Origin: an uncultured delta proteobacterium
Lineage (GTDB): Bacteria; Desulfobacterota; Desulfobaccia; Desulfobaccales; 0-14-0-80-60-11
NCBI GenBank assembly: GCA_963812015.1
Contig: CAWETI010000002.1
Coordinates: forward strand, 160,001-224,000
Length of the DNA stretch: 64,000 bases
Reading direction: 5' to 3'
The position numbers and the translations under genes are program-made. Below, piece by piece: positions 3,980 through 17,095 of the stretch (its first letter is position 1; each line of letters opens with the position of its first letter). The notes beneath the pieces were generated by a model. The model saw nothing but the letters and a program-made list of their open reading frames with translations, was not told where the DNA came from and searched no databases.

Positions 3980-4768
3980 TCAATGCTGCGCCGGGGCCCG
4001 GGGTTGGCACCGGGAGCCCCAGAAGAGCAGCAGGCCGCCGCTGACCAAACACAGGCCCAGGGCCATGAGCTGGGTCAAGGGCATCCAGCCGAAAAAGACC
4101 GGGCCCCGGTAGTCCACCGGGCTCCGGAAAAATTCCACCACAAAGCGCACCAGGCCGGCGAGGCAAAAGTACATCAGGATCATCTGGCCAGCGAAGCGCT
4201 TGCGGGGTCGGAACCAATAGAGGAACCCGAAGACCCCCAGGGCCAAAAAGGCCTCGTAAAGCTGGGCGGGATGCAAGGGCACCCGCAGGGGACAGAGGGT
4301 ATTGGGGTTGTTAAAGACCACGGCCCAGGGCAGATCGGATGGAGAGCCATAGCAGCATCCGGCCATAAAGCAGCCGAGGCGCCCGAAAAATTGCCCCAGG
4401 GGCAGGCCTATGGCCAGGGCGTCCAGGGTGAGGCGCCAGGGCAGTTGGTGGCGGCGGATATAAAGGAAGGCCACGATGAGGGCCAGGATGACCCCCCCGT
4501 GGAAGACCAGGCCCCCTTCCCACAGGGCGAAGATTTTCAGGGGATGGGCCGCGAAGGTGCGCAGCTCCAATAAAACATAGAGGAGCCGTGAACCCACCAG
4601 GGCCGCCAGGATAAGATAGAAACAGAGATCAAAAAATTTCCCCGGAGGTAACCCCAGGCGCTTGGCTTCCCGACCGGCCACGAAGATGGCGCTCAAAAAG
4701 GCCAGGGCCAGGAGGAAGCCATAGGTAAAAATCTTGATCGGCCCGATTTCAAACAGGATTGGATGCAT
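3980..4768 (-). CDS. lgt: Prolipoprotein diacylglyceryl transferase
   Basis: WEGGLVFHGG, GRLGCFMAGCCYG, HPAQLYE and RFVVEFFR motifs. Confidence 0.95.
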   Translation of the reverse strand: MHPILFEIGPIKIFTYGFLLALAFLSAIFVAGREAKRLGLPPGKFFDLCFYLILAALVGSRLLYVLLELRTFAAHPLKIFALWEGGLVFHGGVILALIVAFLYIRRHQLPWRLTLDALAIGLPLGQFFGRLGCFMAGCCYGSPSDLPWAVVFNNPNTLCPLRVPLHPAQLYEAFLALGVFGFLYWFRPRKRFAGQMILMYFCLAGLVRFVVEFFRSPVDYRGPVFFGWMPLTQLMALGLCLVSGGLLLFWGSRCQPRAPAQH

Positions 4769-5249
4769 CAGCAGGGTTCTCTTCTCGGATAATGACCCAC
4801 ACCAGGACTGCGGCTCCCAGGCACACCAGGCTGTCGGCCACGTTGAAGGCCGGCCAGTGGTAGCGCCCCCAATAGACGTCGATAAAATCCACTACTTTTC
4901 CCAAGCGGACCCGGTCAATCAGGTTGCCCAGGGCCCCGGTCAGAACCAGGCTGTAGCCCAGGGTCGCCGGCCAGTGGTCTTCGGGCAGCCGCCATAACAT
5001 ATAACCCAGGACCACCAGCACCAAAGCGGTGGTGATCACAAAGAACAGCCAGGCGAATTGCGTCGACCAGCCGGACAACAGCCCAAAAGCCGCGCCCTTG
5101 TTGTGGATGTGCACCAGGTTGAGAAGGTCCGGGATGAGGGGCGCCTGGCTTCCCAGGGGCAGCTTTTGCATGACCAGAACCTTGGTCACCTGATCCAGGG
5201 CCAGCCCCCCCACCAGGATCGGCAGGAGGATGCTTAATTTTCGGGACAC
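4749..5249 (-). CDS. lspA: Lipoprotein signal peptidase II
   Basis: DQVTK, NKGAAFG, GALGNLIDR, VVDFID, FNVAD; directly downstream of ileS. Confidence 0.96.
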   Translation of the reverse strand: MSRKLSILLPILVGGLALDQVTKVLVMQKLPLGSQAPLIPDLLNLVHIHNKGAAFGLLSGWSTQFAWLFFVITTALVLVVLGYMLWRLPEDHWPATLGYSLVLTGALGNLIDRVRLGKVVDFIDVYWGRYHWPAFNVADSLVCLGAAVLVWVIIREENPADASNPV

Positions 5250-5252
5250 GTC

Positions 5253-8030
5253 TTATTCCTCCAAGACCTGGCGGCAGCGGGCGCACACTTGAGGATGACG
5301 GGGATCTTCCCCTACCCCTGGGTAACGGAACCAGCAGCGGATGCATTTCTCCCCGGCCGCCGGCGCCACGGTTAGCGAGAGCCCCGGAATCTCTTGCGAT
5401 TCCTGGCCCCCCAGGGTTTGGGCCTCCACCCGGAGTTCCGCCACCTGGGCCAGGGTTTTAAGTTCTGCCGTCTGAGACTTTAGCTTAGCATAAAGTTGGT
5501 CATCCATCGTCCCCAAAATGACCGCGGCCTCCTGGGCCGTGGCCAGGCGCTTCTCCTTCCGGCCCTCTTCCAGCCCCCGGTTGATTTCGCCCCGCACTTT
5601 GAGTAAAAAGTCGTACTTGGCCAGCAAGGCCTCGTCGGGAAAGCCCGGGGGCGGCGAGGGCAAGGCCCCCAGATGCACGCTCTCAGGGCGGCCGGCCCCG
5701 GGGATATGCTCCCAGATCTCGTCGGCGGTAAAGGAAAGGATGGGGGCCATGGCCAGGGTGAGGCCCTGAAGCAGATCGTGTAACGTGCTCTGGGCGCTGC
5801 GGCGTTCCCTGGAATCAGCTTTCGAAATGTAGAGGCGGTCCTTCAAGATGTCCAGATAGATGGCGCTGAGCTCCACCGCGCAGAACTGGTGGAGGCGGTG
5901 GAAGGCCTGGTGGAATTCGTAATCCTCGTAGGCCTTTTTGACCCGGGCCAGCAACTGGGCCAGCCAGGACAGGGCCAGGCGGTCCAGCTCCTCCCGGGAG
6001 CCTGGCTCCAACCAGTGCCGCTCCGGGTCGAAGTCGGAGAGGTTGCCCAGCATGAAACGGGCGGTATTGCGGAAACGCCGGTAGGCGTCGGCCAGTTGCT
6101 TCAGGATGTCAGGCGACAGCCGAACGTCATCCCGATAGTCCTCCGCCGCCACCCAGAGCCGCAGGATCTCGGCGCCGTATTTATCCATGACTTCCTGGGG
6201 GGCGATGACGTTGCCCAGGGACTTGGACATCTTGCGGCCGTCGCCGTCCACCACGAAGCCATGGGTCAGCACCCCTTTATAAGGGGAGTGGCCCCGGGTG
6301 CCCACACAGGTCAGGAGGCTGCTGTGAAACCAGCCCCGGTGCTGGTCCGAGCCCTCCAGGTAGAGATCGGCGGGCAGCGCCAGGTCCGGGTCGGGTTCCA
6401 CCACCGCGGCCCAACTCACCCCGGAATCGAACCAGACGTCCAGGATGTCCGTCTCTTTTTTGAAGTCGGAGGCGCCGCAGGCGCACACCGTTCCCGGAGG
6501 CAGCAGGTCGGAGGCGGGAGTGTCGAACCAAAAATCCGCGCCCTCATGGCGTACCCGCTGGATAATACCCTGAAGAATCTCGGGCGTCAGCAGCACCTTG
6601 CCACATTCCCGGCAGTGAAAGGCCACAATGGGCACGCCCCAGGCCCGCTGGCGGGAGATGCACCAGTCCGGGCGCCGTTCCACCATCTGGTAGATGCGCT
6701 CCCGGCCCCAGCGGGGAATCCAGGTGACCCGGTCGATGGCCGCCAGGGCCTTCTGTCTGAGATCGTTGGCCTCCATGGAGATGAACCACTGCTCCGTGGC
6801 CCTAAAGATGATGGGCTGCTTGCAGCGCCAGCAGTGGGGGTAGCTGTGGGTCAGGTCCGCCGCCGCCAGGAGCTTGCCGCGCTCTTTGAGGAGTGCGATG
6901 ATGCCGGCGTTGGCGTCCAAGACCTTTTGTCCGGCAAATTCCGGCACTTCCTGGGTGAACCGGCCGCCGTCGTCCACCGGCGAATAGGGGGCAAGGTTGT
7001 ACTTGCGACCGCTGTCATAGTCCTCCTGGCCGTGCCCCGGGGCGATGTGCACCAGGCCGGTACCCGCCTCCAGGGTAACGTAGTTCGCCAGGATGACCTG
7101 GGAGTCCCGGTCCAGCCAGGGGTGGCGGCAGACCGCGCCCTCCAGTTGACGCCCCTTGACCTGGAGGATTTCTTGCCCCTTAAGCCCCCAAAGGCTCAGC
7201 AAACCCGGGGCCAAATCCCCGGCCACCACCAAAACTTCGGTCCCCAGGTCCACGGCGACGTACTCCAGGTCCGGGTGGGCCGCGATGGCCAGATTCGCCG
7301 GCAACGTCCAGGGCGTGGTGGTCCAGATCACCAGTGAGATTTTTTCGTAAGTGTCCAACTCCGGCACTTGCTCGGGGGCTTTAGATAGAGGAAACTTGAC
7401 GTAGATGGTGGGGGTGCGGTGGTCCTCATATTCCACCTCGGCCTCGGCCAGGGCAGTGCGGCAGGTGGCGCACCAGTGAATCGGTTTTTTGCTCCGGTGG
7501 ATGGCGCCGCTGAAGAAGAACTGGCCATATTCTTCCAGGATTTCGGCTACGTAGGCGTGGCGCATGGTGAGGTAGGGATGGTCCCAGTTGCCCAGCACCC
7601 CCAGGCGCTTGAATTCGGCGCGCTGGATGTCGACGAACTTTTCGGCGTAGGCCCGGCAGCGCTGACGGACCTCCACTTTGGACAATCTCACGCCTTTGGC
7701 CTTCAGTTCCTTGTCCACCTGGTGCTCGATGGGCAGGCCGTGGCAATCCCACCCCGGCACATAGGGGCTATCGAAGCCCGTCATCTGACGGGACTTGACG
7801 ATGATGTCCTTGAGGATCTTGTTTAAGGCGTGCCCCAGGTGAATGTGGCCGTTGGCATAGGGGGGGCCGTCGTGAAGGATAAACTTGGGGCGCCCCTTAC
7901 TCTGGGCCCTGATCTTGCCGTATAGGTCCATCTCGGCCCAGCGTTTCAGGAACAACGGTTCCCGCCGGGGCAGATCGGCTTTCATGGGAAAATCGGTGCG
8001 GGGCAGGTTTAGGGTCGCTTTATAATCCAT
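5253..8030 (-). CDS. ileS: Isoleucine--tRNA ligase (bacterial type 1)
   Basis: [38 protein letters not shown]-terminal CxxC...CxxC zinc finger. Confidence 0.98.
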
Positions 8031-9819: not shown

Positions 9820-11622
9820 CTAGGGGTTCATGGTGTACTTCTGTTCCCCCTTGGGGACGTACCATTTAATGAAGTCATAGTCGATGCCGGCTGGCGCCGG
9901 TTTGATGCCCCGGAAGCGCCGGGAGATGGCAGGCAGGGCGTCGGGCACGAAGAGGAAGGTGTAGGGCTGGTCCTCGGCCAGGATTTGCTGGAAACGGAAG
10001 TAAGCCTGGCGCCGTTTTTCCCGGTCGAAGGTGTGGCGACCCTCGGCCAACAAGGCGTCCACTTCGGGGTTCTTATAGCCGATGACATTGAGCTCGCCGG
10101 GCTTGGTCTTGGTGGAACTCCAGATGTCGAACTGGTCCGGGTCCAGGCCGGTGTTCCAGCCCAACAGGATCGCCTCGAACCGCCCCTTTTGGATGAATTC
10201 CTTGATGAAGGCGGCCCACTCTACGGTGCGGATCTTCACCACGATACCGATCTGCCGCAGACGGCGCTGGATGATTTCGGCGGTGCGCTGCCGGATGTCG
10301 TTGCCCTGGTTGGTGAGGATGGTGAACTCAAAGGGGCGGCCGTCTTTAGTGAGGATCCCCTCGGCATTAGGCTGCCAGCCGACTGCGGCCAGGAGGGCCT
10401 TGGCCCTGGCCGGATCGTAGGCAAATTTGGGCACGTCGGGATTGTAGTACCAGATGCCGGGCTTATAAGGACCATAGGCTTCCTCGCCCAGGCCCATGAG
10501 CACTCCCTCGATGATCTCCTTTTTGTTGATGGCCAGGGTCATGGCCTGGCGCACCCGCCGGTCGGCGAACCGCGAATCGTTCAGGTTGTATCCCAGATAG
10601 ATGTAAGAGAAGGGCATGTAGCGATACTTTTTAAACAGACGATGGAACTTGGGATACTCCGTCTGCCGGGAATATTGCAGGGGGGCGAGGTTCATGCGGT
10701 CGAGGTTGCCGGCCTTCAACTCCAGAAACATGGTGGCCAGGTCGGGCTTCACCAGATAGAGGTAGCCGTTGAGATAGGGGCGGCCTTCGAAGTAGTTGGG
10801 GTTGTAAGCCAGGGCGATCTTCTCTCCGGCCCGCCACTCCTTGAAGATATAGGGGCCGGTGCCGACCGGGTGCCGCCCCAGGGGGGACTTGGTGATGTCC
10901 TGGCCCGCTAACAGGTGCTGGGGCAGGATGGACAGGCCCCAGGAGCCCAGGGCGGGGGCGAAGGGCTGGGGATAGGTGACCCGGAAGGTATAGTCGTCCG
11001 GGGCCTCAGCCTTTTTCACCTGGAGATAGTCTCCGGAATAGGCGGTGGGGGTTTTGGGGTCCACCATCACCTGGTAGGTGAACAACACGTCTTTGGCCGT
11101 GAAGGGGGCGCCGTCGTGCCATTTGACCCCATGGCGCAGGTGGAAGGTGATGGTGAGCCCGTCCGGGGAGATGTCCCAGCTCTCGGCCAGGTCTCCCACC
11201 AGGTTGAGGTCGCCGTCATATTTGACCAGACCGTTGTAGATCAGGCCGATGATGCTGGCCGAGGACGAATCCATGGCCAGGGGCGGGATTAAGGTGCTGG
11301 CGTCGCCGATGGAGGCGTCAAGAAAGAGGTCGCCGTAAGCCGGGCCGGTGTCCGGGCCGCCGTAGATCGGTTCGTCTTTCTCGGACTTGCAGCCGGCGGA
11401 TAGCAGGGCGAAGACGATCAGGCAGATGATGAGATATCGCCAATCGAGATACGGCGACTGGCTGATTCGGGTTGACCTGATGGTGCGGCATGCGGGAAGC
11501 CTCCCCCTCCCCTCGGTGGGAGGGGGTTGGGGGGAGGGGGATTCTTTCTTCAGACAATTCCATGCCAATTTTGTTTCACCCCCACCCTGACTCTCCCCCA
11601 TCCAGGGGGAGGGAATGGTCAC
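9820..11622 (-). CDS. Peptide/nickel ABC transporter substrate-binding lipoprotein (SBP family 5); start uncertain
   Basis: Lipobox LSAG-C; LAESWDISPDGLTITFHLRHGVKWHDG; PVGTGPY. The ORF-track start at 11700 overlaps the tRNA. In-frame starts are GTG 11622, ATG 11601 and TTG 11568. Confidence 0.88.
   Translation of the reverse strand: MTIPSPWMGESQGGGETKLAWNCLKKESPSPQPPPTEGRGRLPACRTIRSTRISQSPYLDWRYLIICLIVFALLSAGCKSEKDEPIYGGPDTGPAYGDLFLDASIGDASTLIPPLAMDSSSASIIGLIYNGLVKYDGDLNLVGDLAESWDISPDGLTITFHLRHGVKWHDGAPFTAKDVLFTYQVMVDPKTPTAYSGDYLQVKKAEAPDDYTFRVTYPQPFAPALGSWGLSILPQHLLAGQDITKSPLGRHPVGTGPYIFKEWRAGEKIALAYNPNYFEGRPYLNGYLYLVKPDLATMFLELKAGNLDRMNLAPLQYSRQTEYPKFHRLFKKYRYMPFSYIYLGYNLNDSRFADRRVRQAMTLAINKKEIIEGVLMGLGEEAYGPYKPGIWYYNPDVPKFAYDPARAKALLAAVGWQPNAEGILTKDGRPFEFTILTNQGNDIRQRTAEIIQRRLRQIGIVVKIRTVEWAAFIKEFIQKGRFEAILLGWNTGLDPDQFDIWSSTKTKPGELNVIGYKNPEVDALLAEGRHTFDREKRRQAYFRFQQILAEDQPYTFLFVPDALPAISRRFRGIKPAPAGIDYDFIKWYVPKGEQKYTMNP
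11498..11615. repeat. Pair of CCCTCCCC..GGGGAGGG palindromic repeats
   Basis: cctccccctcccctcggtgggagggggttggggggaggggg and cacccccaccctgactctcccccatccagggggaggg; related copy at ~52752-52790. Confidence 0.6.
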
Positions 11623-11635
11623 GTTGTCTTTTCTC

Positions 11636-11664
11636 TTGCCCCGGCTGTCGGTTTTGGATACATT
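11636..11664 (+). promoter_or_regulatory. Putative sigma70 promoter of tRNA-Pro
   Basis: TTGCCC-17 nt-TACATT, 8 nt upstream of the tRNA. Confidence 0.5.
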
Positions 11665-11672
11665 TAACAAGT

Positions 11673-11749
11673 CGGGACGTGGCTCAGCCTGGTAGAGCAC
11701 AGCGTTCGGGACGCTGGGGTCGGAGGTTCAAATCCTCTCGTCCCGACCA
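11673..11749 (+). tRNA. tRNA-Pro (anticodon CGG)
   Basis: 77 nt; acceptor stem CGGGACG/CGTCCCG; D-loop AGCCTGGTA; anticodon arm CAGCG-TTCGGGA-CGCTG; GGTTCAAATCC T-arm; encoded CCA. Confidence 0.97.
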
Positions 11750-11823
11750 TCTTCCCGGGGCGGTAAGCAAAAAATTACCACTCAATCCTCCCTGAAACCA
11801 GCTTTTTCCCCCAGCCGGAGCCT

Positions 11824-12069
11824 TCATCTCAGAATATCCTGTTTCATCCGCTCGAACTCGTCTTGGCTGATCTCCCCTTTGGCATAGCGCTTTTTCAGGA
11901 TATCCAGGGCGGTCTCGTTCTCAGGACCGGGGCCGGGTGGCCAGGTGCGACCGGAGCGATTGCGGCCGAAGATGCGGTAGAGGACGAAGATAATGACCCC
12001 GAGCCAGAAGATGGGCATGATGATGGGGAAGAACCACAGGTGCCATTGCCAGTAATGTTCGGGGTACAT
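11824..12069 (-). CDS. SHOCT-domain small membrane protein
   Basis: One TM helix then ALDILKKRYAKGEISQDEFERMKQDI; SD agagg. Confidence 0.88.
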   Translation of the reverse strand: MYPEHYWQWHLWFFPIIMPIFWLGVIIFVLYRIFGRNRSGRTWPPGPGPENETALDILKKRYAKGEISQDEFERMKQDILR

Positions 12070-12115
12070 GACTGACCTCTTATGGCCACAGGCGAGACGC
12101 CTATGCTACCATTCT

Positions 12116-12177
12116 TAAAGGGTTGGGAGGGGGTGCGGGGGAGGGCAGGGACTCGCGTCCCTGGCCCTTCCCCGCAA
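12116..12177. repeat. Intergenic G-rich repeat family (copy)
   Basis: taaagggttgggaggggg...gagggcaggg...ccctggccc; related copies at 17821-17900 (inverted), 24517-24568, 30125-30204 and 37872-37921 (truncated). Confidence 0.6.
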
Positions 12178-12194
12178 TCACCCTGATCTTCCCC

Positions 12195-14507
12195 TCAACT
12201 CCGCCGGCGCCAGCGGGGGCCCCCGGGGGAATCGGTGATATCGATGCCCCGGGCGGCCAGTTCATTCCGGATCTGATCCGCGGTCTGCCAGTCCCGGCCC
12301 CTCCGGGCCTCTTCCCGGGCCCGCAGCGCCGCCTCGATGGTCTCATCCCCGGCCTCCGCCGCCGGCGCCAGGTTCATGATCCCCAAGACTTCGTCCAGTT
12401 CCTGGAAGCGGGCCAGGATGGCGGCCGCGCCGGCATGCCCCAGCTGGCCGTGGTCGAGGTCGGTGTGAAATTCCCCCACCGCCCCAAAGAGGGCCGACAG
12501 GGCCCGGGAGATGTTGAGGTCGTCGTCCAGGGCGGTGATAAACTCTTTTTTCAGCAGGAAGAGACGTTCTTCCACGGCCGGGGTGACGGGGGCCTCGCCG
12601 GTTGCCAGGGCGAGGCGTTCCAGGAAGTGGTCCAGGCGGGCCCGGGCCACGGCTGCGGCCTTGAGGTTGGTGTCGCTGAGGGCCAGGGGCTTGCGGTAGT
12701 GGGCCGCCAGCAGGAAGTGGCGCACCTCTTCCCCCTGGTAGCCCTGGGACATCAGGTCCCGCACCGTCACGACGCCCGCCTCTTTCAAGGGCCGGCCGTC
12801 CCTCAGGACCCGCTCGCAGTGGAGCCAGACGTTGGCCATGGGTTTGCCCGTGGCCGCGGTGAAGATGGCGTTTTCGTTCTCATCGTGGGGAAAGAGCGAT
12901 TCCACGCTGCCCACGTGGAAATCCACGGAGGTGCCCGGGTGTTTCAGGGCCATGGCGGCGGACTCCAGGTGCCAGCTGGGGCGCACCTGACCCCAGGGGG
13001 TGGTGTAGTAGAGCCCTTTTTTCAGTTCCGCCAGCTTGGCGCGTTTCAACAGGGTGAAATCCCGGGGATTGTCCTTGGCGTACTCGTCCAGGTCCACGGT
13101 TTTGCCCACCCGGATCTTGCTCAGGTCCACCCCGGAGAGACGCCCGTAGTCCTTGAAGCGGGAGATGTCGAAATAAACGGAGCGCAGTTTTTCATAGGCG
13201 TAGCCCCGCTCCAGGAGCTTCCGGGTGAGGTCGACCATGTCGTCGATGTGTTCGGACGCCAGGGGATAGAGGACGCCCCCCTGGAGGCGCAGGTCTTCGG
13301 CGTCCCGGAAGAATTCCTGCCGGAAGTGCCCGGTGAAGGCTGCCAAGTCCTGGCCCGCGGCCGCGGCCCCGGCCAGGGCCCGGTCGTCCAGGTCGATGAG
13401 GCTCACCACCTGGCGGACCTTGAAGCCCCGGAAGTTGAGGTAGCGGTGGAGCAGGTCGGCCACCACCAGGCGGCGGGCCACCCCCAGGGAGAGATGGCCG
13501 TAGAGGGCCGGACCGTCGGCGAAAATCGCAGCCTCACCAACGCGCCGGGGCTCGAAGGCCTCCTTGCTCCGGGCCAGGGTGTTGTAAAAGCGGAGGGTGG
13601 GGGCCTCCTTTTCGGTGAACAGGGTAGTGGAGAGGTAGCGTTCGCCGCCATCAGGGGCGATAACCACGATGAGGCCGCTTTCTAACTCCCGGGCCTTGCG
13701 GATGGCCACGGCCACCGCGGCGCCGGAGCTCATGCCCAGGAACAGGCCTTCCTGGCGGGCCAGGCGCCGTGCGGTCTCGTAACCCTCTTCGTCCTCGATG
13801 TTGACAATCTCGTCGGCCTTGGTCTTGTCGAAGATCCCCGGCTTATAGGACTCCTTCATATTTTTCAGGCCCTGGAGGGCATGGCCCAGGAACGGCTCCA
13901 CGCCCACGATGCGGATGTCGGCATTGAACCGCTTCATGCCCGCATACAGGCCCATGAGGGTGCCGGTGGTGCCCATGGTGGCCACCACCATGGTGACCTT
14001 GCCTTCGGTCTGGTCCCAGATCTCCCGGCAGGTGGACTCGTGGGACCGGGGGTTGACGGGGTTGTTGAACTGGTCCGCCAGGAAATACTTGTCCGGATGT
14101 TCCCGGGCCATCCGGTAGACCTCTTCGATGGCGCCGTCGGTGCCCAGGTGGGCCGGGGTCAGGAGGAGTTCAGCCCCCATGCCCTTGAGGATGCGTTTCC
14201 GCTCCAGGCTGGCGGACTCGGGCATGGTCAGGAGCAGGCGGTAGCCCTTGACCGCGCAGACCATGGCCAGACCGATGCCGGTATTGCCGCTGGTGGCCTC
14301 GATGATGGTCTTCTCCGGGGTCAGTTCCCCGGAGGCTTCCGCGGCCTCGATCATGGCCAGGGCCGGGCGATCCTTGACGGAGCCCCCAGGATTGAAATAC
14401 TCCAGTTTGAGGTAAATCTTCACCTGGGGATGGGGGTTGAGACGGTTCAGGCGGACAATGGGGGTCTGCCCGACGAGCTCCAGTATGTTATTGGCCTTGC
14501 GTGACAT
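12195..14507 (-). CDS. Fusion of cysteine synthase (CysK/CysM family) and a degenerate cysteinyl-tRNA synthetase-like domain
   Basis: N-terminal ~300 aa: KLEYFNPGGSVKDR, EATSGNTG, DQFNNP, GTTGT, GMSSGAA, PDGGERYLS. C-terminal ~470 aa: LRFYNTL, RDFTLLK, RPSWHLE, FPHDENE, ALDDDLN, ARRGRDWQTADQIR. Alternative start TTG 14519. Confidence 0.92.
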   Translation of the reverse strand: MSRKANNILELVGQTPIVRLNRLNPHPQVKIYLKLEYFNPGGSVKDRPALAMIEAAEASGELTPEKTIIEATSGNTGIGLAMVCAVKGYRLLLTMPESASLERKRILKGMGAELLLTPAHLGTDGAIEEVYRMAREHPDKYFLADQFNNPVNPRSHESTCREIWDQTEGKVTMVVATMGTTGTLMGLYAGMKRFNADIRIVGVEPFLGHALQGLKNMKESYKPGIFDKTKADEIVNIEDEEGYETARRLARQEGLFLGMSSGAAVAVAIRKARELESGLIVVIAPDGGERYLSTTLFTEKEAPTLRFYNTLARSKEAFEPRRVGEAAIFADGPALYGHLSLGVARRLVVADLLHRYLNFRGFKVRQVVSLIDLDDRALAGAAAAGQDLAAFTGHFRQEFFRDAEDLRLQGGVLYPLASEHIDDMVDLTRKLLERGYAYEKLRSVYFDISRFKDYGRLSGVDLSKIRVGKTVDLDEYAKDNPRDFTLLKRAKLAELKKGLYYTTPWGQVRPSWHLESAAMALKHPGTSVDFHVGSVESLFPHDENENAIFTAATGKPMANVWLHCERVLRDGRPLKEAGVVTVRDLMSQGYQGEEVRHFLLAAHYRKPLALSDTNLKAAAVARARLDHFLERLALATGEAPVTPAVEERLFLLKKEFITALDDDLNISRALSALFGAVGEFHTDLDHGQLGHAGAAAILARFQELDEVLGIMNLAPAAEAGDETIEAALRAREEARRGRDWQTADQIRNELAARGIDITDSPGGPRWRRRS

Positions 14508-14548
14508 AGCGGCATCCAAACTCCTGGCTTTGGCGGTGAAGCAAAGGA

Positions 14549-14839
14549 TTAAGCCCCTTCCTCCTTACCCGTGGCGCCGCACTCCTCCTGGTTCTCCATT
14601 TCTTCGGCCAGGTAATTATTGATCAGGTTAATCAGGGTGAGGACGAAAAACCGGCGGGCCTCGGGCTCGTCATGCATCACTTCCATGAGGCGGTAAACCA
14701 GGGACAGGACTACCAGCCCCGCCTGGGAAGGTGACACATCTTCCTGGTTGAAGCGCTCCAGAATCTCATTCACCAGGGGACGGACGCTCTCCTCCAACGC
14801 GGCATCGCTGGTGAAGGCGGCGGTATCGATTTTGGTCAT
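14549..14839 (-). CDS. Hypothetical helical protein (96 aa)
   Basis: ATG with aagga SD; host-like codons; ends just upstream of the cysteine synthase fusion on the same strand. Confidence 0.7.
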   Translation of the reverse strand: MTKIDTAAFTSDAALEESVRPLVNEILERFNQEDVSPSQAGLVVLSLVYRLMEVMHDEPEARRFFVLTLINLINNYLAEEMENQEECGATGKEEGA

Positions 14840-15119
14840 GGCTTGATCCTTGGGGTTTCCTAAAACTCTTTAATTATAAGGAAAAACCTACCATATTCCC
14901 CGGCGGTTTGCAAACTTCGGGGGCAGGGTCCGGCGCGGGAAGCCGGGGCAGAGGGCGCAGGGCGAGGACCACCCACCTGCCAGACCGGCCAGGGGCCAAA
15001 ATGCTGTTTAATTTTCCCGCCAGGACGTTTATCAATCTTTACCCGCGTTCATAAAAAAATAATGCAAGTTAAATAATAAGAGCCTTAATTAATTAGATTA
15101 ATGTGAACAATTCTCTCAA

Positions 15120-15135
15120 TGGTACGGTCTTTGCT
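15120..15135 (+). promoter_or_regulatory. Putative sigma54 (-24/-12) promoter
   Basis: TGGTACGGTCTTTGCT has exact GG-N10-GC spacing and follows an AT-rich tract. Confidence 0.65.
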
Positions 15136-15243
15136 TTTATTAATAACGTGAGTCGCGCCCGGTGGGGCGCCTGGCTGTCTGTCACGAAACCGGAACGACC
15201 ACAATGCTTTTGCGAGCCCCCCAATTGATCATGTTGAGGTTTG

Positions 15244-15510
15244 ATGATGAAAGATAAATCGGACACCCCCCCGAGTTTTCTCAAGATGGAGCAGGCCCGG
15301 AAGTTGATGGATCAAGGTCATCATCATGAGTCCCTGGTCCTGGCTTTGGAGGTGCTGCTACAAGAATTGGACTCCCTGCGGGATTCTCTCCTGGCCCTGC
15401 AGATGGCGACCCGGTCGGAATACCAGACCTTTACCCCAGATATCCCGGAAGAACATCCCCAACCCGACCATTACTGGCTGCCGGCAGTCAAACCTCGAGT
15501 TTTGCATTGA
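15244..15510 (+). CDS. Hypothetical protein (~88 aa, coiled-coil-like)
   Basis: SD gaggt before TTG/ATG/ATG; downstream of the sigma54 site. Confidence 0.65.
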   Translation: MMKDKSDTPPSFLKMEQARKLMDQGHHHESLVLALEVLLQELDSLRDSLLALQMATRSEYQTFTPDIPEEHPQPDHYWLPAVKPRVLH

Positions 15511-15877
15511 GTCAGGGCAGTGATCACGGCTCTTGCGCCTGCCTCGGCCAAGCTCCCGCCCCGGATTATTTTCAAGAAAATAGGACTGTTGCTCTCCCCC
15601 GGGAGGCGCCTCGGGGTTAGTTGATGGTCGGGGCCACCGCGGCGGGGGGAACAGCCCCGGACCGCCGGCATGGCCAGGCCGCCCCACCCGGATCACGGGA
15701 GCCGGTACCACCCGCCTTATCAGGCCAGCATCACCCTGCAAGGGATGGCGGGGCTCTGAACTCCTCTCAGTGCCGCGGGCTCCGGAGATTGCCTCCCGCT
15801 TCCCTTTTTGTTAAACTAAAACGGCCTGCCGTTCCTGTCGGGGCGGAAGGCCTAATTTCTTTTCGGGACCCCTGGCC

Positions 15878-17095
15878 TTGTCTCCTGATCTCGAGAAACT
15901 CCGCATTCAACGCCCGGAGGGAGAGCGCCCAGTGGCGTCCTCCTCCCGAAGCCGGATTATCATCATGGTCCTGGGGGCAGCCCTCTTGGGCTTCGTAGGG
16001 CTCTACCTCTGGGGTCCACTCCAACCGGCGGCGGAAATTACCACCGCGGTGGCGGCCCGCCTCTATCCGGCCCAGGCCTACACGGTTTTAAACGCCAGCG
16101 GCTATGTGGTGGCCCAACGCAAGGCGGCGGTTTCCTCCAAGAGCACCGGCCGGTTATCTTTCCTGGGGGTGGAGGAAGGCAGCCGGGTCAAGAAGGGGCA
16201 GATTCTGGCCTCCCTGGAGAATGAGGACCTGATCGCCTCCCGGAACCAAGCCATCGCCCAGGTGAAGCAGGCCGAGGCCGACCTGGGCACCGCCCAGGCG
16301 GAGCTGGTGGACGCCGCCCTCCAGTATCGCCGTTATAAAACCCTGGTGGCTCAGGACCTCATTCCCAAGCAGGACTTTGACTCCGCCGACGCCCGGGACA
16401 AGAAGGCCAAGGCCGGGGTGGCCGCGGCCCAGGCCCGGATCAAGGTGGCCCGGGCCGGCCTGGCCAATACCCAGGCGGGCCTGGAATACACCTACATCCG
16501 CGGCCCCTTCGACGGGGTGGTGACCACCAAATATGCCGAGGTGGGGGAAGTGGTGGCCCCCTTCGGCGCCGCGGCCAATGCCCGGGCCGCGGTGGTGACC
16601 ATGGCCGACCTGAACTCCCTGATGGTGGAAGTGGATGTGGCGGAGTCCAACCTGGATAAGGTGCGCCTGGGTCAACCCGGTGAAATCTCCCTGGACGCCA
16701 TTCCCGACCGGCGCTTTGCCGGCGAGGTGCACATGATTGTGCCCACCGCCGACCGGACCAAGGCCACTGTGCTCACCAAGGTGAAATTTCTGGAGACGGA
16801 TGACCGCATCCTCCCGGAAATGAGCGCCAAGGTGGCCTTTCTCAGCAAATCCCTGGAGCCTGGGGCCCGCCAGCCCCGCCTGACCATCCCCAAGGGCGCC
16901 CTCCTCACCCGGGACGGCCGCGCCGAGACCTCCCTGGTGGCCGGCAACCGGGTGAAACTGGTCCCCATTACCCCGGGCCTCACCATGAACGACCTGGTGG
17001 AGGTCGCCGGCGGCCTCAAGGAAGGGGACCGGGTGGTCTTGAACCCGCCCGCCTCCTTGAAGGACGGCTCTCGGGTGAAAGTCAAAGAGTCATGA
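15878..17095 (+). CDS. Efflux transporter periplasmic adaptor (MacA-like MFP)
   Basis: N-terminal TM; ASGYVVAQRKAAVSSK, VEEGSRVKKGQILASL, IRGPFDGVV, ILPEMSAKV, GLKEGDRVV. Confidence 0.92.
   Translation: MSPDLEKLRIQRPEGERPVASSSRSRIIIMVLGAALLGFVGLYLWGPLQPAAEITTAVAARLYPAQAYTVLNASGYVVAQRKAAVSSKSTGRLSFLGVEEGSRVKKGQILASLENEDLIASRNQAIAQVKQAEADLGTAQAELVDAALQYRRYKTLVAQDLIPKQDFDSADARDKKAKAGVAAAQARIKVARAGLANTQAGLEYTYIRGPFDGVVTTKYAEVGEVVAPFGAAANARAAVVTMADLNSLMVEVDVAESNLDKVRLGQPGEISLDAIPDRRFAGEVHMIVPTADRTKATVLTKVKFLETDDRILPEMSAKVAFLSKSLEPGARQPRLTIPKGALLTRDGRAETSLVAGNRVKLVPITPGLTMNDLVEVAGGLKEGDRVVLNPPASLKDGSRVKVKES

Follow-up and report, generated by a model that had tools for sequence, protein, structure and literature searches.

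We analyzed a 64,000-nucleotide (nt) stretch of the genome of an uncultured delta proteobacterium of the order Desulfobaccales (GenBank assembly GCA_963812015.1, contig CAWETI010000002.1, positions 160,001 to 224,000; referred to here as the window), in which an initial annotation had described a cysteine synthase fused to a cysteinyl-tRNA synthetase (CysRS) lacking its catalytic motifs. We confirmed this architecture. The listing of open reading frames (ORFs) gives a minus-strand open frame at window 12195..14519, 774 amino acids (aa) long from a TTG codon; we placed the start of the fusion at the ATG at 14507, which yields 770 aa and fits the homologue lengths of 767 to 772 aa. Pfam matches along the protein are PALP (residues 9-286), tRNA-synt_1e (320-618), DALR_2 (655-711), and CysS_C (721-767), and the linker between the synthase half and the CysRS-like body is about 4 residues long. 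The motifs listed in the initial annotation (SVKDR, TSGNT, GTTGT, DGPALY..SLGV, SWHLES, RPLKEA, and ALDDDLN) were all present in the translation, and its quoted segments VGSVESLFPHDENE and REEARRGRDWQTADQIRNEL were likewise found there. The locus is a two-gene unit in which a small three-helix protein, here called u96, is followed by the 770-aa fusion (Table 1).

Table 1. Features of the fusion locus, in window coordinates
Feature	Position	Strand	Basis or remark
Fusion coding sequence	12195..14507	-	770 aa plus stop
CysM-type pyridoxal phosphate cysteine synthase domain, residues 1-300	13608..14507	-	TIGR01136, structure fit, invariant residues
CysRS-like Rossmann/connective peptide core, predicted to lack ATP chemistry, residues 305-620	12648..13595	-	Alignment to E. 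coli CysRS
Helical part (stem-contact fold plus DALR bundle), residues 621-715	12363..12647	-	DALR_2 match
CysRS anticodon-binding domain, residues 716-770	12198..12362	-	CysS_C match
u96 partner gene, 96 aa	14549..14839	-	31/31 order loci
Conserved upstream box, predicted promoter of the two-gene unit	14885..14913	-	Order-wide conservation
GC-rich strong hairpin, overlapping and running past the fusion stop codon, possible terminator	12119..12200	-	Folding energy

Judged by its residues, the N-terminal half is a catalytically intact-looking CysM-type pyridoxal phosphate (PLP) cysteine synthase. It passes the cut-off of the cysKM profile TIGR01136 (362.6 bits, cut-off 344.15) and misses those of the CysM equivalogs TIGR01138 (354.8 versus 394.2 bits) and NF008735 (327.9 versus 413 bits). 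The PLP lysine is K45, TSGNTG and GTTGT lie at residues 72-77 and 179-183, and the substrate loop reads H209..QGLKN216..E219.Y221.P223, within a segment that aligns without gaps to E. coli and Salmonella CysM. K45, both motifs, and the loop pattern H..QGLKN..E.Y.P are invariant in 29 fusions, the most eroded ones included. The best structural fits of this half are to CysM (2bhs and 2jc3, TM-score [TMt] 0.94), and 3dwg/3dki matched it weakly (E 0.11). Thus, the PLP lysine, the Asn loop, the loop length, and the fold are common to the fusion and to CysM, or O-acetylserine sulfhydrylase B (2bhs, 2jc3, and 2v03). In contrast to CysM, the fusion has the loop sequence QGLKNMKESY where the E. coli enzyme reads PGIRRWPTEY, adds a 470-aa C-terminal extension, and sits in a genome without detectable CysE. 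Our guess for the acceptor substrate of this half would be O-phosphoserine, and its loop may resemble that of M. tuberculosis CysM.

In a per-residue alignment of the C-terminal half to E. coli CysRS (1LI5/1U0B), C28 is replaced by D331, HIGH by S340-L-G-V343, T68 by I371, K73 and K76 by R376 and A379, C209 by S516, and K266-M-S-K269 by P573-L-K-E576, with H234 and E238 retained as H541 and E545. The zinc ligands, which we take to be C28, C209, H234, and E238, read D, S, H, and E in the fusion, so that two of four are retained and both cysteines are replaced. Passages of PMC10655014 state that CysRS has two conserved zinc cysteines. The claim that the two ATP signatures and the two zinc cysteines have been lost is therefore true for this copy, in which half of the zinc site remains. 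W205 and FPH.ENE are also retained in the core, together with H234. Among the close family members listed, Asp at the C28 position and Ile at the T68 position are found throughout, and the residue at position 209 varies among Ser, Cys, and Gly; this recurrence in close relatives shows that the pattern of motif loss is not due to chance. The half fails the cut-offs of both the cysS profile TIGR00435 (296.8 bits, or 298.7 in the genome search; cut-off 340) and the MshC profile TIGR03447 (130 bits, cut-off 485.1). The C-terminal half is an old CysRS paralogue, and the loss of T68, two zinc cysteines, and both ATP motifs predicts that it no longer activates cysteine. A persulfide relay through the CysRS body, one of three roles suggested in the initial annotation, also fails. 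According to passages of PMC10655014, the persulfide activity of CARS depends on the lysines of 73-KIIK-76 and 266-KMSK-269, and all four are replaced in the fusion (R376, A379, P573, and E576).

An AlphaFold2 model of the fusion is confident (mean predicted local distance difference test score [pLDDT] 86.2, predicted TM-score 0.66), and its weak segments are confined to residues 467-470, the substrate loop of the CysM half, the 4-residue linker, and the hinge that precedes the anticodon domain. The modeled C-terminal half fits 8qhp at TMt 0.91, and 477 columns were aligned to tRNA-bound 1u0b_B. A Rossmann core, connective peptide insertion, helical bundle, and anticodon domain are common to this half and canonical CysRS (E. 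coli CysS, TIGR00435), and the fusion keeps the equivalents of R427, W432, D436, and R439 as well as H234 and E238. It differs from the canonical enzyme in the replacement of HIGH, KMSKS, C28, C209, and T68, in being fused behind a synthase, and in coexisting with a true cysS.

The residues R427, W432, D436, and R439 form the anticodon interface of E. coli CysRS in 1U0B, where R427 bonds G34 (passages of PMC13449415), and their equivalents in the fusion are R735, W740, D744, and R747 (codons at 12267-12305). Among 152 close fusions, both arginines and the aspartate are present in all 152, and the tryptophan position holds Trp in 139, Phe in 10, and Tyr in 3. Three of these four contact residues fall within the 9 invariant columns of the 55-column domain (hypergeometric p ~0.012). 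Across the phylum, each contact residue is retained or conservatively replaced in 58 of 59 fusions, the sole miss being a locus that is unaligned there. With the four contacts retained and a CysS_C match, the fusion has the anticodon-binding domain typical of a cysteine--tRNA ligase.

The fusion belongs to a large family. At least 120 close homologues exist, those listed being 72 to 97% identical; they come from Desulfobaccales, Desulfobacca acetoxidans, or Thermodesulfobacteriota bins and carry the database names "cysteine synthase" or "cysteine--tRNA ligase." Desulfovibrio ferrophilus is another source name attached to a relative. Within the order, we counted by eye fusion-type matches in 80 of 83 genomes, a number that includes genomes with fragments at contig ends only, with 61 to 90% identity over full-length matches. 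The three genomes without a match are G004 (72% complete), G074 (73%), and G082 (99%). In a sample spread evenly over the phylum, 160 of 401 genomes and 98 of 254 genera have a full-length fusion, and its presence is nearly all-or-none by family. One family without a full-length fusion, f52 (G182, G214, G273, G330, G357, G405, G428, and G451), has two CysRS-type matches at E ≤ 1e-60, of which the second may be a stand-alone paralogue, comparable to P0136-P0138 with their fusion-clade signature, or the CysRS* described below.

Among the phylum fusions, 59 of 59 carry the signatures DF[TA]L[LF]KR and RR after the HIGH site, which canonical CysRS does not have. Their ATP motifs range from near-intact (C..HLGN..KMSRS in L067, L068, L076, and L104) to fully eroded (VTGP, WHIAAA, and FPHLENV), with both motifs recognizable in 6 of 59 and neither in 24. 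The first His of HIGH is retained in 34 and position 4 in 11; the second KMSKS lysine is retained in 4 and is Arg in 25. At the zinc positions, C28 is retained in 50, C209 in 51, H234 in 58, and E238 in 41. In a quick IQ-TREE run with midpoint rooting and Shimodaira-Hasegawa-like approximate likelihood ratio test support only, canonical CysRS forms a 100*-supported clade, and all Thermodesulfobacteriota fusions lie across that branch. Both ATP motifs were lost in at least 6 independent events on starred branches and in 9 on the tree as drawn, and the domain itself was retained every time. Thus, on alignment evidence, three features are constant throughout the family: an intact CysM half, a CysRS body with its connective peptide region, and the anticodon readers. 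The ATP chemistry appears to be dispensable and to have been lost repeatedly. The tree also contains a 768-aa CysK-CysRS fusion from a Nanoarchaeota metagenome-assembled genome (P0125) with canonical C..HIGN..KMSKS, which is an independent fusion because it is placed inside the canonical CysRS clade.

Some members of the family have longer frames. At L045 (G022:C21, 5413-8307), the partner frame continues into the fusion through a 291-nt spacer to give a 964-aa open frame, which may be due to chance or may be a triple fusion. Further fused domains may account for the long frames at L118 (G247:C12:120587-122917, 1403 aa), L119 (G267:C318:30293-32602, 1181 aa), and L077 (G223:C100:11524-13797, 929 aa).

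The host genome (G000; 3.96 Mb, 99.86% complete, 5.72% contamination) encodes a canonical cysS on another contig (541.9 bits, with C..HLGH, T68, C209, HH..E, and KMSKS), so the fusion is not its sole cysS, and throughout the genus (18 of 18 genomes) a canonical cysS is present at 84 to 90% identity. By a cross-reading made by eye, 150 of the 160 fusion-bearing phylum genomes have at least two CysRS-type matches (E ≤ 1e-60). Three of the other ten (G123, G160, and G391) have a clear canonical cysS, with the fusion-type gene apparently below threshold: G123 and G160 have strongly eroded fusions, and the G391 locus has no single ORF holding both halves. Three more (G086, G090, and G167) are 62 to 79% complete, and four (G122, G151, G235, and G432) are ambiguous. 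For the genomes with near-intact fusions, above-cut-off CysRS matches are listed on other contigs of G240, G089, and G298, and G085 has two CysRS matches, the best at E 9.1e-160. A separate cysS is present even beside near-intact fusions; the fused domain is thus old as a paralogue and has at all times been accompanied by a real cysS.

We used the Nei-Gojobori method to calculate the ratio of nonsynonymous to synonymous substitution rates (dN/dS) for same-genus pairs of the fusion (12 genomes, 66 pairs) and of the real cysS (17 genomes). The synthase half has a dN/dS of 0.097. For the CysRS-like half the value is 0.195, versus 0.142 for the real cysS; by domain, the values are 0.150 versus 0.096 in the core and 0.217 versus 0.215 in the helical part. 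The absolute dN values of the fusion and the real cysS are near-equal (0.064 and 0.049 in the core, 0.070 and 0.091 in the helical part, and 0.180 and 0.172 in the anticodon segment). The similar dN and the low dN/dS of each domain therefore place the whole C-terminal half under purifying selection. None of the 32 full-length loci used has an interrupted frame, and the CysRS-like half is not decaying. Among 152 family members, 75 of 316 core columns (24%) are invariant, compared to 4 of 95 (4%) in the helical part and 9 of 55 (16%) in the anticodon domain. The expectation that an eroded core decays beside a preserved anticodon domain was thus not borne out, as the core is the best conserved of the three, and the dN/dS map also runs opposite to the initial annotation, with a lower value in the core (0.15) than in the anticodon segment (0.39).

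The stop codon of u96 lies 41 nt before the fusion ATG, and in 31 of 31 order loci the gene immediately precedes the fusion in the same orientation; the next best neighbours reach 15 and 14 of 31. This conserved partner is a new observation. It has no Pfam match; 656 homologues were found at E ≤ 0.001, and the 120 listed are unnamed or "hypothetical." The invariant residues in its alignment are N24, I26, L27, F30, N31, A40, G41, L47, R50, N74, and L77, and the AlphaFold2 model, with a core pLDDT of ~90, has helices at residues 12-32, 37-57, and 59-87, consistent with a three-helix bundle. A Foldseek search with this model returned nothing at E ≤ 0.001, the best VIA-align hits (2jr2, Z 7.3; 2juz, Z 6.1) are below the level that the tool considers meaningful for helical bundles, and the nearest Pfam-bearing Atlas cluster, DUF1414 at 0.81, is a weak lead. 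We did not find u96 beside 60 fusions outside the order, nor a recurrent operon partner across the phylum, where the largest neighbour cluster covers 8 of 59 loci.

Upstream of u96 is a conserved box consisting of TTGCAA (14913-14908), a 17-nt spacer, and TAGGTT (14890-14885) preceded by TGn. Of 30 order loci, 26 have the pattern [CT]TGCA[AG]N ahead of u96, and in several genera it sits at -71 to -75; the TTGCAA element holds a fixed spacing to TAnnnT. The composite TTGCAA-N10-13-TATG[GA]TA occurs once in the 3.96-Mb host genome, at the fusion locus. These features point to a -35 and extended -10 promoter of the two-gene unit, one that a promoter consensus scan did not call. The core of the box, TTTGCAAA, is a palindrome and may also serve as an operator. 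We considered and rejected mimicry of a tRNA anticodon in the leader, as in ThrRS-style autoregulation: the conserved element is UUGCAAA at a fixed spacing from TGnTAnnnT, it does not lie in a conserved hairpin loop, and a -35 box or operator is the best reading of it. At the other end of the unit, the hairpin over the fusion stop codon has a folding energy of -57.1 kcal/mol (z = -3.39); weak matches to several microRNA-precursor models indicate that the hairpin is long, and a terminator scan did not call it. A search of window 11000-16500 against Rfam (E ≤ 1) returned no riboswitch or T-box, just a tRNA-Pro and hairpin-like noise. Contigs from RNA libraries of four wetland metatranscriptomes, 90 to 99% identical and thus from relatives, cover both genes, with DNA carry-over possible. 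One of them bridges the u96/fusion junction (14403-14637), and two extend beyond the predicted -35 box, which as contigs cannot mark the start of transcription.

In profile searches of the host genome, nothing but the fusion exceeds the cysKM cut-off; the second-best match reaches 83.7 bits. CysE was not found in this genome (best match 24.8 bits), nor were SepRS (24.6 bits, cut-off 380.65) and SepCysS (36 bits, cut-off 365.25). Across the order, a count by eye at E ≤ 1e-30 gave 46 of 83 genomes with a CysE-like gene, which scores 134 to 169 bits against a strict cut-off of 210.65. In 16 of 16 order genomes with a listed stand-alone cysK (46 to 48% identical), this gene adjoins the CysE-like gene; the pair is patchy in the order (e.g., G051:C10:506666-508159 and G025:C8:108-1598) and absent from the host genome. 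Fusion-bearing families of the phylum include some with a CysE-like gene (f10, 4/4 genomes; f17, 5/6; f18, 12/12; f25, 7/7) and some without one (f2, 0/2; f20, 0/8; f5, f6, f9, and f26, 0/1 each). We therefore rejected a role of the fusion as a replacement for CysE, since the association is loose across the order and the phylum families. The fusion can be the sole CysK-type enzyme in a genome without the acetyltransferase, yet it is not simply a CysE substitute.

The host genome has two tRNA-Cys(GCA) genes, which are identical at 65 of 75 positions. Among the full-length matches listed, only the C2-type tRNA-Cys is conserved across the order (92 to 100% identity); the divergent copy (G000:C3:882330-882404, outside the window) is present in the host genome and perhaps in G030. 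Several relatives have fragments of the 3' half of tRNA-Cys (positions 31-75), which look like the result of integration at tRNA-Cys. ARAGORN also called a 96-nt tRNA-like gene at G000:C3:1704362-1704457, probably in error; its anticodon has four bases ("ggtg"), and its acceptor stem is mismatched.

We judge the chances to be about even that the C-terminal half is a tRNA-Cys-binding module of the cysteine synthase that has no charging activity; its function would probably be regulatory. Such a module would bind tRNA-Cys through the GCA anticodon without charging it, and this binding would link the activity of the attached synthase to how the tRNA-Cys pool stands; cysteine synthesis might, for instance, be turned on by uncharged tRNA-Cys, in a manner comparable to HisZ-HisG or to the HisRS-like domain of GCN2. 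Sensing of uncharged tRNA-Cys is the mechanism we prefer for a tRNA-binding module. A fuller version, in which uncharged tRNA-Cys on the pseudo-CysRS half allosterically switches the CysM half and the three-helix partner of the order is part of the switch, is one we offer tentatively as a real possibility; tRNA binding, the allosteric coupling, the substrate of the synthase half, and the part played by the small partner are elements that we infer. The proposal of a repurposed tRNA-binding module made in the initial annotation is still the best reading, in that the paralogue is retained and the anticodon contacts are near-invariant; what did not hold is the premise that the anticodon domain rather than the core would be the best conserved part.

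Several results weigh against this proposal. The conservation of the core agrees no less with binding of a ligand or contact with a protein than with a function on tRNA, and the anticodon segment (55 codons, variable hinge included) has the highest dN/dS of the fusion, 0.387 versus 0.177 in the real cysS. The predicted binding of tRNA rests on four conserved residues and the retained fold. We found no tRNA-like element in the leader, and the idea of a dedicated second tRNA-Cys was rejected, as the divergent copy is not conserved across the order. Finally, the fusion and CysE are not strictly anti-correlated, with f10, f18, and f25 having both.

These points bring into view a domain of the HisZ kind but with no tRNA role at all, in which a vestigial core would bind a small molecule or a protein and regulate or scaffold the CysM dimer. 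Candidate ligands would be cysteine, O-acetylserine or O-phosphoserine, a nucleotide, or the small partner, and the anticodon domain would be kept for folding or contacts. This account takes in the former catalytic core as the most conserved C-terminal part (24% invariant, dN/dS 0.150), the new residues fixed at old active-site positions among the members listed (Asp at C28 and Ile at T68), the retained W205, H234, and FPH.ENE, and the zinc cysteines kept in most phylum fusions (C28 in 50/59 and C209 in 51/59), and it has a precedent in HisZ, a non-adenylating synthetase paralogue that regulates the synthesis of its own amino acid (passages of PMC9437257). However, the near-invariance of four base-contacting anticodon residues across diverse fusions is hard to explain without RNA. 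In addition, the order has lost both zinc cysteines and T68 with the domain still under selection, so a function common to the family cannot rest on a zinc-thiolate cysteine pocket, and cysteine sensing by such a pocket is not the family-wide function. We regard this account, the leading alternative, as rather unlikely overall.

Chemistry on the tRNA itself, related to the tRNA-dependent cysteine formation raised in the initial annotation, would have the PLP domain act on the aminoacyl group of a tRNA-Cys held by the C-terminal half, either by SepCysS-like beta-replacement on a seryl-type tRNA-Cys or by passing fresh cysteine to the real CysRS while the two share a tRNA. A PLP beta-replacement enzyme does lie about 4 residues from a body predicted to read tRNA-Cys, CysE was not found in the host genome, and the independent CysK-canonical CysRS fusion in a Nanoarchaeota metagenome-assembled genome shows that this pairing has been favoured more than once. 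Against it, the partners it needs, SepRS and SepCysS, were not found in this 99.86%-complete genome (best matches 24.6 and 36 bits), no enzyme is known there that loads a seryl-type residue on tRNA-Cys, and the pseudo-CysRS and real CysRS would presumably compete for the same tRNA surface, all of which makes such chemistry improbable. Residual or altered ligase activity, with cysteine or another acid activated by a non-canonical route, draws on the relatives with HLGN, KMSRS, and all zinc ligands (L067, L068, L076, and L104) and on MshC as a precedent for new ligase roles (passages of PMC2922099 and PMC9437257); with HIGH, KMSKS, C28, C209, and T68 all replaced in this copy and 130 bits against the MshC cut-off of 485, we consider it very improbable. 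Neutral decay of a pseudogenised domain made redundant by the canonical cysS is scarcely credible given the frame intact in 32 loci, the C-terminal dN/dS of 0.195, and the presence of the fusion in 80 of 83 order and 160 of 401 phylum genomes; decay across the whole domain, which the initial annotation had named as a finding that would count against repurposing, was not seen.

Known systems resemble the fusion in part. Passages of PMC9437257 and the abstract of PMC9734150 describe HisZ, the regulatory subunit of the short-form ATP phosphoribosyltransferase HisG, as a non-adenylating HisRS paralogue that regulates the synthesis of its own amino acid, with feedback on HisG. The likeness is that of a non-adenylating synthetase paralogue physically coupled to the cognate biosynthetic enzyme, which the fusion shares through its motif loss and covalent link. 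HisZ is a separate subunit of class II that is not known to have an anticodon-binding domain, whereas the fused paralogue is of class I, is covalently attached, and has kept its anticodon readers. In GCN2, a non-charging, synthetase-like HisRS domain senses uncharged tRNA; GCN2 differs in that it is a eukaryotic protein whose synthetase-like domain is joined to a kinase and shows no specificity for a single tRNA. CysRS*, which occurs in Desulfobacterales of the same phylum, is an active synthetase without an anticodon-binding domain that charges SelC* (passages of PMC9437257). The fusion is the reverse case, without ATP motifs but with the anticodon domain kept. MshC shows that CysRS paralogues can gain new ligase roles (passages of PMC2922099 and PMC9437257), but it is an active ATP-dependent ligase, and the fusion falls far short of its profile cut-off. 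The table of duplicated aminoacyl-tRNA synthetases in PMC9437257, in the part seen, has MshC and CysRS* as the only CysRS paralogues. Full-text searches of the open-access literature returned no paper on a CysM/CysK-CysRS fusion. The passages retrieved from PMC2922099, PMC8762117, and PMC5424206 describe no such fusion, and those from PMC8762117 contain neither "cysteine synthase" nor "CysK."

The database label "cysteine--tRNA ligase" is wrong for this lineage and can mislead reconstructions of metabolism and of the translation system. With cores that range from near-intact to fully eroded and an anticodon reader that is always kept, the family is a natural series and a clean system for studying why dead synthetases are retained. 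The conserved residues suggest that the supply of cysteine may be tied directly to tRNA-Cys. Were the synthase controlled by its binding of tRNA-Cys, this would be a new way for bacteria to match amino acid synthesis to tRNA charging, and it would explain how cysteine, a reactive and toxic metabolite, is controlled in anaerobes without CysE. In a tRNA-gated enzyme, cysteine output would follow translational demand directly, replacing or supplementing CysE-based feedback in sulfide-rich anaerobes, and the fusion would be the first case in bacteria of a biosynthetic enzyme that answers, via a fused dead synthetase, to the charging state of its cognate tRNA.

The other genes noted in the window lie downstream of the unit. 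Just downstream of the fusion, an 81-aa SHOCT-domain protein is encoded at 11824-12069 on the minus strand and is found in 15 of 31 order loci. A tRNA-Pro(CGG) gene at 11673-11749 on the plus strand overlaps the 5' end of a long minus-strand SBP_bac_5 frame as listed. Window 3980-8030 holds an ordinary minus-strand ileS-lspA-lgt cluster, in which ileS encodes a 925-aa protein with a zinc finger.

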